A stretch of 64,000 nt of DNA from a virus, in IMG/VR virus record IMGVR_UViG_3300030447_000318, one strand, 5' to 3'. Positions 4,311 to 52,957 of this stretch are shown here, in pieces (position 1 is the first letter of the stretch; the number at the start of each line of letters is the position of its first letter). A model generated the notes under the pieces. It searched no databases. It saw nothing but the letters and a program-made list of their open reading frames with translations, and was not told where the DNA came from. The position numbers and the translations under genes are program-made.

Positions 4311-4562
4311 ATCTACAACTTTACCCATACTCTTATTCTCCTATCTGATCTACAATACTCTGTAACTTATCAATATATATCTGAGCGTCTTCCTTGTTGA
4401 AAATCTTAAAATCACATGGGACAATAGTAGCTGCGCAGCTTTACTCACATGTGAACATTTTCCTTTCCTTTGTTTTTGTATTTATATTGTTATATTCTCT
4501 TGTTTGTCCTAAATATTGTATAGTTTTCGTGACAAACCAAGAAACCAAAAATTCATCTTAAT

Positions 4563-30057: not shown

Positions 30058-30087
30058 TTTCTTATTCTCCTTTCTTACTGTAAATAA

Positions 30088-30160
30088 CAGGGCTAATCGG
30101 ATTCGAACCGATGAATGCAGAGATCAAAACCCTGTGCCTTACCACTTGGCGATAGCCCTA
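30088..30160 (-). tRNA. tRNA-Gln (anticodon UUG)
   Basis: Minus-strand sequence AGGGCTATCGCCAAGTGGTAAGGCACAGGGTTTTGATCTCTGCATTCATCGGTTCGAATCCGATTAGCCCTG folds as a cloverleaf. It has a 7-bp acceptor stem, U8, A14, GG in the D-loop, anticodon loop TTTTGAT (anticodon TTG) and a GGTTCGAATCC T-arm. No encoded CCA. Confidence 0.8.
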
Positions 30161-45534: not shown

Positions 45535-45718
45535 AAAAATTACCTCGCTTTTTTCATATTTTATATTATCTTATTATAACACAACATCATTTTTTGATAC
45601 AGTATGCCAATCATCAAAATAGTATACATATACCAACAGTATATCTGGATGTATAGCATATTCAACATACTTATTTACTTTTAGCATACCAAATCTTTTA
45701 AGCAAGTATTTAGTCATA

Positions 45719-46309
45719 TCAACTCTTTTCTTCAATACCTAAAACTCGATTGATTTGAGTAATTCTAGCAAGTAGCTTTTCTTTTTCTGCTATTAATTCT
45801 GATATTTCTTCCATATCTTCTCTAATTTCTAAAATCTCAATTTTATATGGAAGATTATCTTTCTCTTTTTCAAATATATTTTTATTAACTTTTGATAAAT
45901 AAAAAACAGACCCAGCAGATACTTCTGAACGCCAATATTTTGCACTGCCTCCACTTTTAATCTTACCAGAAATAAGGACTACGTCCCTACCGACTCTTGC
46001 ACCACTATCTCTATTATAAGCACTAGAAATATCTTTTCCAAACACTCTTATAGACTCTTTGCAAGCAAAAGAATCTTCTAAAAATTTTATTTTAACATCA
46101 ATTGTTTCATTTCTATCTATGTCAGAATAACCAAAAACATCTACCATAATATTTCTTACATTATCAATATATTCTTTTGGAACTGTCCAACATTTATTTG
46201 ATGAATTCCATCTTGCAGAACCTATGTTTTTAATTTTAATAACAAATTCCTTATTGTACGGTGTATAAATATTTATTGAACTACTTCCTAGTACGATCTT
46301 AATGTCCAT
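45719..46309 (-). CDS. hypothetical protein
   Basis: 196-aa ORF. Confidence 0.45.
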   Translation of the reverse strand: MDIKIVLGSSSINIYTPYNKEFVIKIKNIGSARWNSSNKCWTVPKEYIDNVRNIMVDVFGYSDIDRNETIDVKIKFLEDSFACKESIRVFGKDISSAYNRDSGARVGRDVVLISGKIKSGGSAKYWRSEVSAGSVFYLSKVNKNIFEKEKDNLPYKIEILEIREDMEEISELIAEKEKLLARITQINRVLGIEEKS

Positions 46310-46356
46310 ATCTTTATCCTCCTTGTATAATTTCTCTAATTTGTTTATATAAATAT

Positions 46357-46381
46357 AACCTCAAAAATAATTTTTGAGGTT
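46357..46381. terminator. rho-independent terminator hairpin
   Basis: Perfect palindrome aacctcaaaaat-aat-ttttgaggtt. Confidence 0.5.
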
Positions 46382-46388
46382 ATATTTC

Positions 46389-46859
46389 TTACATTAATGC
46401 CATTGTAAATGTTTGTAGAACACAGTAAAAAGTCCCATTTTTAGGATAATCTTTATCTTTTTCATCCCAATCAAGAAGTAAAATATCAAGGAACTCTGAA
46501 CTAATATCTGTCAATAAGTTTAATTGAAGAATGGTATTAAAACAGCCATCTCTATCATGATATTCCATGTAATATACTAATTGTGTCCTTAGTCCTTTTA
46601 GTTTATCACCAGCCACTTTTTTCATTTCTTTTCCAGAATTATATGCTTTTTGTACATAGTTATCTCTAACTATATGATTAAGTTTTTCAGTTATTAACTG
46701 TTCTGCATAATCAGTTGGTTTCTTATCTGCACTTATCCAATTTTCTAATGTTTCAATTTTAACTTTTAATGCTTCTGCTAATTCAGGAACTGTCTTAACT
46801 CCTAAATAATCCTTATATTTTTCCCAATTTTTAATAGTTATTTCTAACATAACATTCAC
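46389..46859 (-). CDS. hypothetical protein
   Basis: 156-aa ORF. Upstream TTGACA-17-TAAACT promoter on the minus strand near 46930. Confidence 0.45.
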   Translation of the reverse strand: MNVMLEITIKNWEKYKDYLGVKTVPELAEALKVKIETLENWISADKKPTDYAEQLITEKLNHIVRDNYVQKAYNSGKEMKKVAGDKLKGLRTQLVYYMEYHDRDGCFNTILQLNLLTDISSEFLDILLLDWDEKDKDYPKNGTFYCVLQTFTMALM

Positions 46860-47021
46860 TCCTTTTTTAATTATGTTTTATTTTTTTAATTTAGCTCTTG
46901 ACATATAATTAGTTTATTACACATTGTGTAGTATGTCAAGTGCTTAGTATGCTTTATCTAATTCTCCTAAGATTTCCAATACATCTCTTTCGTCAACCTT
47001 CATATGCTTATTGTCTCGAGT

Positions 47022-47498
47022 CTAAAAAGGAACATAATCTTCATATTTTTCATACAACTTCTCTAAGTAAGTATCACAGTCTTCTACTATTTTATCTATT
47101 ACATCACAAAATTCAGAAAACGATTCTTCTTCATATTCCCACATATCTCTACCTGTACATCTAAATACGTAATGTTTCCCTAGTTCATCGTCATTTTTAT
47201 TTTCTTCTTCTGCTTTTCTTTCCCACTCTTCTTTTTCCTCGTCTGGTAAATAATCATAATCAATCGCTAAAGGAATCCAACGACTCTCAATCAAGAACTC
47301 TGGAACTGGAAGATTTTCTTTTCCGCAGAAATCTCTGAAATTATAGTCTGAATCGCTCAAGAAAAAATCTAACGATTCAGCATGGCTACTATCGGGGAAA
47401 TATATATCATGACGATATTTAGACAGTATTCTTTTGTGACGTTTTAAAGTATCAATTAAACTTGTTTGACTTTCTGTTAACATTGTTTTGTTTTCCAT
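47022..47498 (-). CDS. acidic hypothetical protein
   Basis: 158-aa ORF, Glu/Asp-rich. Confidence 0.45.
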   Translation of the reverse strand: MENKTMLTESQTSLIDTLKRHKRILSKYRHDIYFPDSSHAESLDFFLSDSDYNFRDFCGKENLPVPEFLIESRWIPLAIDYDYLPDEEKEEWERKAEEENKNDDELGKHYVFRCTGRDMWEYEEESFSEFCDVIDKIVEDCDTYLEKLYEKYEDYVPF

Positions 47499-47549
47499 AT
47501 TTATTACCTCCTTAAAACAAACAATTTTATTAATTTTTTAAAAATGCCC

Positions 47550-47645
47550 TTGACAAAATGAAAAGTGATTTCTACTATCGTAGATGAAGAGTAGGAAAAT
47601 CCTACAATATTGCAAGACGAGGTTTATACCTCGTCTTTTTTTATT
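47550..47645 (+). CRISPR. solitary Cas12a-type repeat unit 1 (promoter -35, repeat hairpin, 28-nt segment with second hairpin, terminator)
   Basis: CTTGACAAA at 47549-47557 (ttgaca core 47550-47555). Repeat ATTTCTACTATCGTAGAT at 47568-47585 (stem TCTAC/GTAGA). Terminator gacgagg-tttata-cctcgtc followed by T7 at 47615-47643. The -10 position is ambiguous for this copy. Confidence 0.5.
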
Positions 47646-47691
47646 CATAATCATAACAAAATTTTGTCAGGGTGTGAACCACACCCTATTA

Positions 47692-48033
47692 TCAAGCTAA
47701 GCAATTAACTATTGAATAATATTCTTTTCTTTCTACCATCATTATTACAACTTTTGCATTTTTATCATCATACCATTCCTCAAAATCGGCAAACCCATCA
47801 TTAGCCATTATAGAGAAGGAATAATCTTTTTCATCCATAATTTGATAATTTGCGACTTCTAAATTATTAAATAATTGTTTTGGGATGTCATCTTCGGTTA
47901 TTTCTTTAATTTTGTCTTGATGTATGTCATACACAGAATAATGTTCATCTTTTGGTATATATATCTTAAAATCAACAATGGTTTCATTTTTATTTTTCTC
48001 TAATATTTTATTATAAAGTTCTAAAATTTTCAT
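47692..48033 (-). CDS. hypothetical protein
   Basis: 113-aa ORF. Confidence 0.45.
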   Translation of the reverse strand: MKILELYNKILEKNKNETIVDFKIYIPKDEHYSVYDIHQDKIKEITEDDIPKQLFNNLEVANYQIMDEKDYSFSIMANDGFADFEEWYDDKNAKVVIMMVERKEYYSIVNCLA

Positions 48034-48070
48034 ATTTCTACCTCCGCCCTCATTAACAAAAATAATATTC

Positions 48071-48493
48071 CTAAAAACTTAAATAAACTTCTGAGTCATC
48101 TTCATCGTATTGGTTCATAGCGTCTACAGCATCAGCCATATTATCGTAAGTTCCTAAAGTCTTATAAGACGGTGTTTCTATAAGACTAATATAAATCTTT
48201 GAATAATCAGAGATTTCTCCTCCAGAAACCCACTCACCATCTTCATCATATTCATTTTCTTCCAGATAATATTCATCTACGAGATAATATGTTCCTTTTG
48301 CACCAGATAATTCAGATATACTCGTTTTGTGTTCATTTAATCTTTTTTTAGCTCTATCTTCCTCATTTTCATTGAAACTTTCAATTAATTCTGAAACTTG
48401 ATCATCATTTAAAAGAGTGACACCCTCTTTTATTTCTTTTCTATCTCTATATGGGATTTCTATACTTGCTTTTCTAAGTTCTATTTTTTTCAT
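48071..48493 (-). CDS. acidic hypothetical protein (start MKKIELRK with RBS gaggagg)
   Basis: The longest-ORF start is a TTG. The ATG at about 48493 has a perfect SD. Confidence 0.45.
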   Translation of the reverse strand: MKKIELRKASIEIPYRDRKEIKEGVTLLNDDQVSELIESFNENEEDRAKKRLNEHKTSISELSGAKGTYYLVDEYYLEENEYDEDGEWVSGGEISDYSKIYISLIETPSYKTLGTYDNMADAVDAMNQYDEDDSEVYLSF

Positions 48494-48525
48494 ATCACTT
48501 ACCTCCTCAAAAATAAAAAACTTTC

Positions 48526-48643
48526 TTGACAAATTAAATATTATGTAATATAATATGCAATGTAATTTCTACTATAGTAGATAAAAAACATATTACAACA
48601 GGTTAGAGAGACGGGATTTTGCATCCGTCTCTCTTTTATTTGC
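48526..48643 (+). CRISPR. solitary Cas12a-type repeat unit 2 (TTGACA-17-TATAAT promoter, repeat TAATTTCTACTATAGTAGAT, 23-nt spacer-like segment, terminator)
   Basis: -35 at 48526-48531. -10 at 48549-48554. Repeat at 48563-48582. 23-nt segment aaaaaacatattacaacaggtta at 48583-48605. Terminator gagagacgg...ccgtctctc plus T-run at 48606-48640. Confidence 0.6.
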
Positions 48644-48650
48644 TCTAATT

Positions 48651-48923
48651 TTAAGCCCAAACATCAGTTACTTTATACCCAATTAAAAATCCATTGTTGT
48701 TATATAATTTTTCGACCTGTACAGATATTACTGTAGCATCCTTACTATTTACATAGCATTGCCACACCTGTCCATCTTCACCAATAATTACTTCTCCGTT
48801 AGAGGATGAGTCGGTTTCGAAGTCTTCAAAACCACAAATAATCTCCTCTGCAAGCTCTTGTTCCTCGTATTCCTTACCTACTAACTTTCTCAAATTTTCC
48901 ATAACTTGTTCTAAAGTAGTCAT
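48651..48923 (-). CDS. hypothetical protein
   Basis: 90-aa ORF. Confidence 0.45.
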   Translation of the reverse strand: MTTLEQVMENLRKLVGKEYEEQELAEEIICGFEDFETDSSSNGEVIIGEDGQVWQCYVNSKDATVISVQVEKLYNNNGFLIGYKVTDVWA

Positions 48924-48989
48924 ATTACTTGCCTCCTCAAATCTAATAATTTTTCTCTCTTTCTAAGTATATTTTGAAAAATTTTATAC

Positions 48990-49145
48990 TTGACAAACTA
49001 AATATATTATGTATAATAAATATTGTAACACAACTTGTGTTGCTGATTTCTACTTAGCGTAGATGAAATGCCCACATAGTGTATTGGTAGTAAATGTTGG
49101 GCGACAGAGGGCGTAGTATCCAGATTGGCTACGCCCATTTTTATT
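48990..49145 (+). CRISPR. solitary Cas12a-type repeat unit 3 (TTGACA-16-TATAAT promoter, repeat ATTTCTACTTAGCGTAGAT with Lb-like 5-nt loop, ~44-nt segment, terminator)
   Basis: -35 at 48990-48995. -10 at 49012-49017. Repeat at 49046-49064. Terminator gggcgtag...ctacgccc plus ATTTTTATT at 49109-49145. Confidence 0.55.
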
Positions 49146-49148
49146 GTT

Positions 49149-49568
49149 TTACTCTATTGCGTCTCTAAGAATTTGAATAAAATTCTCGATGTTTTTTACA
49201 TTTTCTTTATCCATTTTTTTACCCCATTCTTCGACCTTTGGAAGACGTATCCAGTCTTCATAATCATAGTCATCAGGAGAAACTGGGCAATCGAAAATTT
49301 CGCATAAATATTTTCCATCATACCCAAGGTTGTGTTCCATATTAGAATATATATGAGGATAAATGTCTATAACGTCTACTGAGTTTGGAACTATAAAATC
49401 ATAGTCTCCTACACAATATTCATCTAAGATACTGCCTATTTCTTCATATATCTCATTCTCATAATGTGTTGACAAAAAATCTATATAGCTAACAGATGAA
49501 CTTAATTCTATAATGTCTTTTTCGATTTTATCAATTTGTGTTAAACTTAAATTATATTTATTTTTCAT
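49149..49568 (-). CDS. hypothetical protein
   Basis: 139-aa ORF. Confidence 0.45.
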   Translation of the reverse strand: MKNKYNLSLTQIDKIEKDIIELSSSVSYIDFLSTHYENEIYEEIGSILDEYCVGDYDFIVPNSVDVIDIYPHIYSNMEHNLGYDGKYLCEIFDCPVSPDDYDYEDWIRLPKVEEWGKKMDKENVKNIENFIQILRDAIE

Positions 49569-52729: not shown

Positions 52730-52957
52730 CTAATAATCCAATACTTCCAACACATCTGGATGATCTTCAAACCATGAATTTTCATCCAATTTCCATATTT
52801 CAATCCAATCTGTTTTAGCATTAAATTCATTAGAATGTGCATTGTATGCAGTTTTTACTTTTTCTCTTGCTTCTTCCACACTATCAGCAATAACAATTCC
52901 TGTTGCTAAATCCTTTACGGAATAACCATATAATCTTTTAACATTCATAATTACCAC
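52730..52957 (-). CDS. hypothetical protein
   Basis: 75-aa ORF. Confidence 0.4.
   Translation of the reverse strand: MVIMNVKRLYGYSVKDLATGIVIADSVEEAREKVKTAYNAHSNEFNAKTDWIEIWKLDENSWFEDHPDVLEVLDY

Follow-up and report, generated by a model that had tools for sequence, protein, structure and literature searches.

Unit 1, an intergenic element of the 64,000-nucleotide viral sequence IMGVR_UViG_3300030447_000318 (the whole of which is called the window here), appears to be a phage or prophage gene for a Cas12a-handle RNA of the Racr/Cracr class that acts as a decoy, a reading of class and mechanism to which we assign a probability of about 60%. This reading is suggested by the identity of its repeat with the Cas12a handle and by the presence of three such units, all equipped with a promoter and a terminator of their own, where 0.15 would be expected. 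Moreover, the RNA part of the unit is kept better than the promoter part between two alleles, the hairpin that follows the repeat is unusually stable for a spacer while no full protospacer was found in the collections scanned, and RacrVA1-3 and CracrVA1 provide published precedent. Several points count against it: the best sigma-70 match in the allele of the window starts after the handle; in one related locus (L002) the combined -35/TG element is mutated to TTAACA; the hairpin is seen to be kept in two alleles that differ by one loop substitution; genomic solitary repeats do not as a group show such structure; and within its lineage unit 1 varies at the rate of its flanks.

How could such an RNA interfere with Cas12a? 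We infer from the sequence that unit 1 is expressed, that its RNA binds Cas12a and that it acts as a decoy. The intact allele would yield a transcript of ~75 nt that begins at the mature 5' end of the handle (+/- 1-2 nt), runs through the 28-nt post-repeat segment and ends at the intrinsic terminator. The handle would load this RNA into the host Cas12a in competition with immune crRNAs and, since only 5 nt are single-stranded before a 6-bp hairpin, a productive R-loop should not form, so that the RNA would be a non-targeting decoy.

Anatomy of unit 1 and identity of its repeat

From position 47549 onward unit 1 reads cTTGACAaaatgaaaagtg-ATTTCTACTATCGTAGAT-gaaga-GTAGGA-aaa-TCCTAC-aatattgc-AAGACGAGGtttataCCTCGTCTT-TTTTTTT (Table 1). 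The preliminary description of this DNA had placed a box at 47549-47557 and a repeat at 47568-47585, and CTTGACAAA and the 18-nt ATTTCTACTATCGTAGAT, respectively, are found there, the box also heading units 2 and 3; the other features named in that description were confirmed as well. Exact copies of the box occur only three times in the window, each about 20-55 nt 5' of one Cas12a-type repeat. The 18-nt repeat has a copy with one mismatch at 48565-48582 (two matches in the window versus 0.10 expected), and the Cas12a stem-loop pattern TCTAC-N3-7-GTAGA is present three times (47571, 48568 and 49049), always on the + strand, with 0.15 occurrences expected. The nearest other repeats lie ~1.0 and ~1.5 kb from unit 1, each in its own transcription unit, and unit 1 is therefore solitary. 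It is also intergenic, as no ORF of at least 40 aa spans the region 47499-47691 on either strand. A terminator scan detected intrinsic terminators 3' of units 1 and 2; in unit 1 the segment 47614-47637 plus the seven T folds in the way claimed earlier. The 86-nt RNA of unit 1 folds into three hairpins, formed by the handle, the post-repeat segment and the terminator (z = -4.4 versus shuffled sequences).

Table 1. Positions of unit 1, its parts and its two sibling units in the window; L001 is the allele of a related phage
Feature	Position	Strand	Description
Unit-1 module, AT-rich upstream part	47513..47549	+	homology with the related-phage allele begins at 47513; 32/37 positions identical to L001
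-35 box TTGACA	47550..47555	+	inside the CTTGACAAA box common to units 1, 2 and 3
Candidate extended -10, TGaCAAAAT	47551..47559	+	product of the deletion, 7-8 nt 5' of the handle; inferred from sequence and alignment
Junction of the 20-bp deletion	47559/47560		from alignment with the L001 allele
TACTAT	47573..47578	+	sole -10-like hexamer 17 nt from the -35 box; inside the repeat
Repeat-like element (psiR), Cas12a 5' handle (G)ATTTCTACTATCGTAGAT	47567..47585	+	stem TCTAC/GTAGA, loop TATC
Spacer-like segment (psiS)	47586..47613	+	single-stranded GAAGA (5 nt), hairpin GTAGGA-AAA-TCCTAC at 47591-47605, linker AATATTGC
Intrinsic terminator	47614..47644	+	10-bp stem AAGACGAGGT / ACCTCGTCTT, 4-nt loop, seven T at 47638-47644
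Unit 2	48526..48640	+	12/12 promoter, handle AATTTCTACTATAGTAGAT, unstructured post-repeat segment AAAAAACATATTACAACAGGTT, terminator
Unit 3	48990..49142	+	12/12 promoter, 5' leader hairpin, handle GATTTCTACTTAGCGTAGAT, post-repeat hairpin from position 6, terminator (seen in the fold)

Its match to genomic repeats identifies the 18-nt element as the 3' portion, the handle, of a type V-A (Cas12a) CRISPR repeat. Except for its first base, a G instead of the A of genomic repeats, the 19-mer at 47567-47585 matches the 3' end of V-A repeats perfectly, and of the 36-nt V-A repeat only this handle part is present in unit 1. In a scan of one genome per species the handle AATTTCTACTATNGTAGAT was found at at least 120 loci, many of them arrays with a spacing of ~63-66 nt, and several of the arrays and solitary repeats listed adjoin large ORFs with a Cas12a N-terminal motif. 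Homologues of one such ORF contain the Cas12a Pfam domains PF18501, PF18516 and PF18510 and are encoded beside cas4, cas1 or cas2 and arrays. The low-GC Ruminococcus/Eubacterium-type Cas12a loci agree in GC content with the phage (~30%). The best overlapping matches in Rfam were noise (ctRNA_pT181, 27.4 versus a threshold of 56 bits, E = 1.4; HrrF, 19.3 versus 77). Unit 1 has the make-up of an RNA gene built on a solitary Cas12a repeat and belonging with the RNA anti-CRISPRs, as had been proposed in the preliminary description, whose further suggestion of a spacer-less decoy is plausible.

The three units in their phage

The window covers the replication and early region of a large phage, encoding DnaE, a RecJ-like exonuclease, a DnaB-like helicase, a Sak4-like annealing protein and a replication initiator, with nearly all genes on the - strand and a GC content of ~30%. 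Its DnaE is closest to the DnaE proteins of the Clostridium phages c-st and phiCD211 (43% identity); the source is a Clostridia-type phage or prophage. There is no Cas-like large ORF in the window, the ORFs of at least 350 aa encoding replication proteins or proteins of unknown function, and sequence searches of the neighbouring small ORFs against PHROGs, Pfam and the PDB revealed no Acr and no other known family. Between small - strand ORFs lie the three solitary + strand RNA units, each running from promoter to terminator, at 47.5, 48.5 and 49.0 kb; their post-repeat segments are all different. Since the units are transcribed against the phage genes as autonomous cassettes, their expression may not depend on the lytic programme and may also take place from a prophage. 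On the - strand a promoter-like site is found at 47678-47650 and a gene for a 158-aa protein starts at 47498, unit 1 being fully antisense to the leader.

A 20-bp deletion in the promoter

Among 50,697 GenBank phages a nucleotide search revealed no match to the locus; relatives of the phage are present in IMG/VR and in metagenomes. One of these, IMGVR_UViG_3300045988_137558 (L001 and L004), is 99.9% identical to the window over 45611-47512 and then diverges, the sequence left of 47513 being a different mosaic block, and homology of the module between the window and L001 is limited to the stretch from 47513 through the end of the T-run. The unit of L001 consists of TTGACA-aattgaaaaaagcaata-TATAAT-gtaaaagt-AATTTCTACTATCGTAGAT-gaagagtaggaaGatcctac followed by the terminator as in the window, and a further sequence (L128) carries the same allele with its perfect TTGACA-17-TATAAT promoter. 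In an alignment with this allele, the allele of the window lacks the 20 nt AAAAAAGCAATATATAATGT, the whole -10 box included, and it is this deletion that gives the promoter the compressed appearance remarked on earlier. In addition to the indel, 7 of 55 positions differ between the promoter parts of the two alleles, as compared to 1 of 70 in the RNA part, that is handle, post-repeat segment and terminator stem (Fisher p = 0.02). The terminator stem-loop is identical, and the post-repeat segment matches at 27 of 28 positions, the single change, A47598G, affecting the middle base of the loop.

In intact units, namely L001 (with 8 nt), unit 2 and the host CreRs of L060, L131 and L134, the -10 box precedes AATTTC by 8-9 nt, a spacing with which transcription would begin at or close to the handle's mature 5' end. 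Where, then, does transcription of the window allele start? A sigma-70 scan returned TTGACA-17-TACTAT (47550-47578, 10/12) as the only properly spaced match, in agreement with the earlier observation that the only suitable -10-like hexamer lies inside the repeat, and use of this pair would set the start at ~47585-47586 and yield an RNA without the handle. TGaCAAAAT, which was created by the deletion, could possibly serve as an extended -10: it has an AT-rich tract on its 5' side, and its distance of 7-8 nt to the handle is about that of the intact units. The start site is uncertain, as had been stated before. The chances appear about even that the truncated allele still makes a handle-bearing RNA from the weaker extended -10 or, about equally likely, that it makes only the handle-less RNA from TTGACA/TACTAT, or none.

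Variation across the lineage

Exact-protein look-ups of two flanking ORFs listed them in 236 and 393 index blocks, the element thus being common. Contigs carrying it reach 633 kb, a length that points to an integrated prophage in gut bacteria, and one variant has an integrase nearby. The truncated allele was present in 20/20 loci examined (15 distinct contigs), without a single difference from 5' of the -35 box to the end of the post-repeat segment. Variants of unit 1 are limited to a C>A exchange in the 3' arm of the terminator (L157) and a T>C exchange just past the T-run (L163, L166 and L127). For the window and 16 metagenomic sequences, 2 of 133 sites of unit 1 are variable and the flanks vary at ~1.2-1.3%; unit 1 varies at the rate of its flanks, with no sign of either faster decay or special constraint, and this variation is uninformative on selection acting on unit 1. 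The idea of a decaying copy, raised in the preliminary description, is half right: the -10 box was lost by the deletion, but the allele is near-invariant in this set and varies no faster than its surroundings.

The presence of the units varies. L127 contains units 1 and 2 without unit 3, several contigs lack unit 3, and in L005 all three units are absent through a clean deletion of 47097-49262 that fuses two ORFs in frame. L002 and L006 contain a single hybrid in which the truncated upstream region of unit 1 is joined within the repeat to the post-repeat segment and terminator of unit 2, and in the L002 hybrid the -35 box is mutated to TTAACA. The position of this junction suggests that post-repeat segments are reshuffled by recombination at the shared handle. 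The module also moves independently of its neighbours, having different adjacent genes in L001 and being recombinant in L002. A variably deleted or degenerate copy in related genomes had been put forward earlier as an argument against function. Such variability is indeed seen in L005 and L002, but function is not thereby refuted, because it is normal for accessory anti-defence loci.

The post-repeat hairpin

Over its first 24 nt, the post-repeat segment of unit 1 folds with -6.9 kcal/mol. Among 796 genuine spacers from Cas12a arrays 1.8% are as stable as this, and among shuffled sequences 0.1%, in support of the earlier view that the segment is a hairpin and not an ordinary spacer. The comparison of the -10 region and of the hairpin with related phages, recommended in the preliminary description, had a divided outcome: the hairpin is kept in both alleles (window and L001/L128), but the -10 region differs. 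Covariation of the stem was not found in this comparison of two alleles with one loop substitution. In unit 3, too, a post-repeat hairpin starts at position 6 (GAAAU|GCCCA...UGGGC), and the alleles of this unit differ by a CA to TG change at positions 11-12, both exchanges turning Watson-Crick into G-U pairs in the extended stem. Hairpins directly after a short single-stranded stretch were also observed in individual cases, namely Segatella L081/L124, L071, L074 and the CreR in L145; for 41 genomic solitary repeats as a group, no significant excess of structure over array spacers was seen in the post-repeat segments (p = 0.26). The hairpin, which in unit 1 takes up guide positions 6-20, is therefore real, unusual and common to units 1 and 3, but units of this kind do not in general possess one. 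It could be imagined, although this is speculative and rather improbable in its entirety, that units 1 and 3 are dedicated "hairpin-locked" Cas12a decoys, in which a promoter-fused mature handle is followed by exactly 5 single-stranded seed nt (GAAGA / GAAAU), by a hairpin from position 6 that would block R-loop extension and 3' trimming, and by a terminator, that they are autonomous cassettes of a widespread human-gut prophage, and that in unit 1 the deletion turned the -35 box into an extended -10 without killing the gene.

Searches for targets

The logic of host CreRs is reproduced in the host loci analysed: the seed adjoins a TTTA PAM, overlapping or just 3' of the -10 box, and lies a short distance 5' of the cas12a start codon. 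The seeds are CGGTTATTAT (10 nt) in L131, L132, L142 and L143 with Ruminococcus Cas12a, TAGTGATTT (9 nt) in L134, CGAAGTGAT (9 nt) in L082 from Eubacterium and CGGTTGT (7 nt) in L060. For the seeds GAAGAGTAGG, AAAAAACATA and GAAATGCCCA of units 1-3 no TTTV-flanked match of 9 nt or more was found in ~140 host-derived loci, which include a small sample of Cas12a loci, namely 16 loci around eight Cas12a proteins (Ruminococcus-type and related), most with upstream sequence. Host solitary repeats with a post-repeat segment like those of units 1-3 were not found among the loci listed, and a genome scan for the handle plus the seed of unit 1 returned no match.

An exact 20-nt scan of metagenome contigs for the protospacer of unit 1 (19 specified bases and one N) retrieved only copies of the unit and two chance matches, an exact 20-nt scan of IMG/VR for the protospacers of units 2 and 3 retrieved only the units themselves, and no self-target or protospacer for units 1-3 was found in the window and related phages. 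Conversely, none of the array spacers of the sampled Cas12a loci targets the phage. The two chance matches (L129 and L130) lack a PAM and occur at chance frequency, and they were rejected as protospacers of unit 1. Discarded as well were L003, a chance match inside a coding sequence, and an 18/19 PAM-distal match between a spacer of L131 and L004, which has the wrong PAM and a mismatched seed.

Alternative explanations

The strongest competitor of the decoy reading, possible though not probable, is that unit 1 is an inactive relic: the 20-bp deletion would have killed the gene, leaving no transcript or a handle-less RNA of ~57 nt from 47585-47586, and the locus would persist through linkage only. 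The consensus -10 is lost, while promoters matching at 12/12 positions are found in the orthologue and in both siblings, TTGACA-17-TACTAT sets the start 3' of the handle, a further -35 mutation has arisen in L002, L005 does without any unit, and the flanks are no more variable than unit 1 itself. However, handle, post-repeat segment and terminator are without disabling change in 17 sequences except for the terminator-stem variant in L157, and TGaCAAAAT, with the AT-rich stretch 5' of it, lies at about the usual -10-to-handle distance; the lineage is moreover too young for decay to show either way. An unlikely explanation is that unit 1 encodes a regulatory guide of the Cracr type, whose post-repeat segment would send Cas12a by a short seed to the promoter of host cas12a or of a toxin and repress it without cleavage, mimicking CreR. 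Its architecture is that of CracrVA1 (one repeat-like element, a spacer-like segment, a rho-independent terminator and its own promoter), and host CreR seeds of 7-10 nt beside a TTTA PAM were confirmed in L131/L132/L142, L134, L082 and L060. Furthermore, the alleles of unit 3 differ only at post-repeat positions 11-12 with the first 10 nt kept, and three different post-repeat segments would be expected if each aimed at a different Cas12a variant. Against such a guide speak the missing TTTV-flanked seed match of at least 9 nt in the ~140 host-derived loci, a weak negative given the small sample of Cas12a loci, the missing host counterpart among the loci listed, and the hairpin of unit 1 itself, which sequesters positions 6-11 and would weaken a 10-nt seed.

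Cas12a requires just a 5' handle and a spacer, so that one repeat followed by a terminator could yield an active crRNA. Unit 1 might on this ground be a virus-borne mini-CRISPR, its functional single-spacer crRNA hijacking the host's Cas12a for cleavage of a rival mobile element or of a gene of the host, and the scaffold of CracrVA1 does cleave DNA once full complementarity to a target has been built into its spacer-like segment (bioRxiv 10.1101/2024.10.29.618823). This is nevertheless very improbable, as the exact 20-nt searches (metagenomes for unit 1, IMG/VR for units 2 and 3, the window and related phages) disclosed no protospacer and an internal hairpin is atypical of spacers. Still more remote is a cis-antisense or transcription-punctuation element unrelated to CRISPR, which would pair with the 5' UTR of the 158-aa gene or whose hairpins would punctuate the - strand operon. 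Unit 1 does lie between the - strand promoter-like site and the start of that gene. Yet three units whose downstream sequences are unrelated all contain the exact Cas12a handle, the neighbouring genes do not move along with the module (L001, L002), the T-run lies 3' of the terminator hairpin on the + strand only, and the Rfam match to a ctRNA is far below threshold (27 versus 56 bits, E = 1.4).

Relation to known systems

A total of 2,103 viral solitary repeat units have been described, and RacrVA1-3 inhibit MbCas12a (Camara-Wilpert et al., Nature 2023; PMC10651486). CracrVA1, from an uncultured phage, consists of a single repeat-like element, a spacer-like segment and a terminator; its 10-nt seed matches a Ruminococcus cas12a promoter, and a version with a mutated spacer still competes for Cas12a, if weakly (Liu et al., bioRxiv 10.1101/2024.10.29.618823, 2026 version). 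The Cracr arrays in the same preprint are all of type I-C, I-E or I-F. As a decoy, unit 1 is a new example of this known anti-CRISPR RNA trick and not a new kind of system, and the current conceptual picture is unchanged.

Unit 1 resembles Racr units in being a solitary, intergenic repeat in a phage without cas genes, situated among small ORFs of unknown function, and sequestration of Cas is what has been proposed for Racrs. The location directly downstream of a promoter, a Racr trait, is intact in L001/L128, whereas unit 1 of the window is without a -10 box. The one V-A entry of the Racr table considered here is a full 36-nt repeat, GATTAATAATCCCTAATAATTTCTACTGTTGTAGAT, in contrast to unit 1, in which the 19-nt mature handle alone is joined to the promoter; handle-only units may thus escape repeat-based finders. 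In the part of the table considered (PMC10651486), just a type I-B unit is given for a related phage, IMGVR_UViG_3300029215_000002, and this type I-B solitary repeat is absent from the window. With CracrVA1 unit 1 shares one Cas12a handle, the spacer-like segment, the rho-independent terminator, a promoter of its own, the origin from an uncultured phage and likely low-GC Ruminococcus-type hosts. It differs in that 10 PAM-proximal nt of CracrVA1 match a cas12a promoter, whereas no such match to unit 1 was found among the ~140 loci, and in its post-repeat hairpin from position 6, its promoter without a -10 and the presence of three separate transcription units in the window. Virus-borne mini-CRISPR arrays in inter-virus conflicts have genuine spacers that match related viruses and are flanked by two repeats. 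Like these, unit 1 brings a CRISPR repeat into a virus without cas genes; unlike them, it has one repeat, and no protospacer was found in the metagenome contigs scanned.

RNA anti-CRISPRs (Racr, Cracr) are recent, and few type V-A examples have been dissected. The locus offers a natural allelic series of one Cas12a-mimic RNA, with intact promoter, -10-deleted, recombinant and completely lost forms, in a prophage lineage common in human-gut metagenomes. It also supplies a structural idea, namely that a hairpin right after a 5-nt seed would make a crRNA a safe decoy. Of practical interest are compact natural Cas12a inhibitors or scaffolds and the prediction of phage resistance to Cas12a.

Host CreRs adjoin cas12a and have seeds that match the adjacent promoter, whereas unit 1 resides in a phage and no target was found for it in the loci scanned. 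The likeness to CreRs extends to the handle, the 8-9 nt from -10 box to handle and the terminator after the post-repeat segment (L060, L082, L131 and L134), and the CreR in L145 also forms a 6-bp hairpin, which begins at post-repeat position 7.

Recombination and loss of the RNA units

The three solitary RNA genes with a Cas12a repeat handle do not behave as fixed entities among related phages. A hybrid unit is found in the related phage IMGVR_UViG_3300029215_000002 (L002, 2944-3075), in which the truncated upstream region of unit 1 is followed by the post-repeat segment and terminator of unit 2. The -35 box of this hybrid is mutated to TTAACA, and the two genes located between units 1 and 2 are deleted. 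Since the junction lies within the repeat, the sequence of the hybrid indicates that the units recombined with one another at their common handle. Another relative (L005, 7554-7838) contains none of the three units, and the segment corresponding to 47097-49262 of the window is absent. This clean deletion results in an in-frame fusion of the 139-aa ORF (49149-49568) with the C-terminus of the 158-aa ORF (47022-47498).

Features of the window other than unit 1
Feature	Position	Strand	Remarks
Unit 2, Cas12a-handle RNA gene	48526-48640	+	perfect 12/12 sigma-70 promoter; terminator
Unit 3, Cas12a-handle RNA gene	48990-49142	+	perfect 12/12 sigma-70 promoter; terminator
Small ORFs between RNA units	47022-49568	-	158, 113, 140, 90 and 139 aa
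Sole tRNA-Gln	30087-30160	-	anticodon TTG

Post-repeat segments of the units

The post-repeat segment of unit 2 is devoid of structure, and that of unit 3 is long and structured. Unit 3 has in addition a 5' leader hairpin (49025-49043) and a handle loop of 5 nt. When the unit 3 alleles of two related loci (L157, L162) are compared with the window, the first 10 nucleotides of the post-repeat segment are identical in all three, and the sole difference is a change of CA to TG at positions 11-12 (window 49075-49076), both substitutions retaining pairing as G-U within the predicted hairpin. In unit 1, 7 of the 9 bases at post-repeat positions 12-20 (AAATCCTAC, 47597-47605) agree with the handle's 5' half (AATTTCTAC), a likeness with an estimated chance probability of roughly 0.03-0.05. 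This segment may be the remnant of a degenerate second repeat, left over from a collapsed mini-array.

A solitary repeat of type I-B, GTTATAATTAGTTCATACTGAAATGTAAAT, is listed for the phage carrying the hybrid unit (positions 52805-52834) in the supplementary data of the Racr study (Camara-Wilpert et al., 2023; PMC10651486); a search of the window for this repeat yielded no copy.

Neighboring genes and prophage distribution

Searches of Pfam and PHROGs with the five small ORFs, and of PDB sequences with the four closest to unit 1 (158, 113, 140 and 90 aa), gave no significant and no convincing match, respectively. Judged by their position, interleaved with the RNA units, these ORFs are candidate anti-defence proteins. 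An inverted repeat, cTTGACAta...taTGTCAAg (46897-46940), with a promoter-like site on the - strand, precedes an ORF (46389-46859) that weakly resembles a CI repressor; about 46860-47013 is swapped for other sequence in two related loci (L163, L127).

Proteins identical to those of the two ORFs flanking unit 1 recur in hundreds of index blocks, and on chromosome-sized contigs of human-gut metagenome assemblies (L147-L166; up to 633 kb), which implies that the phage element is a widespread integrated prophage. The adjoining cassettes differ among these contigs and include genes for Fic, integrase, resolvase and IS605 TnpB.

Host CreR elements

Host CreR elements are present upstream of cas12a in L131/L132/L142 (about 300 nt upstream), L134, L082 and L060. 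In all these loci seeds of 7-10 nt match a TTTA-flanked site that overlaps the -10 box or follows just downstream of it, and that lies shortly before the start codon of cas12a. The published layout of cas12a autoregulation is thus independently reproduced.

The Cas12a gene P0005 on Logan ERR11472863 contig L135 lacks accompanying cas1, cas2 and cas4 and may be borne by a mobile element. A CreR-like solitary repeat precedes it; three closely spaced handle-like repeats with the loops TGGT, TAGT and TACT (4330-4460) and a SUKH_5 gene lie downstream.
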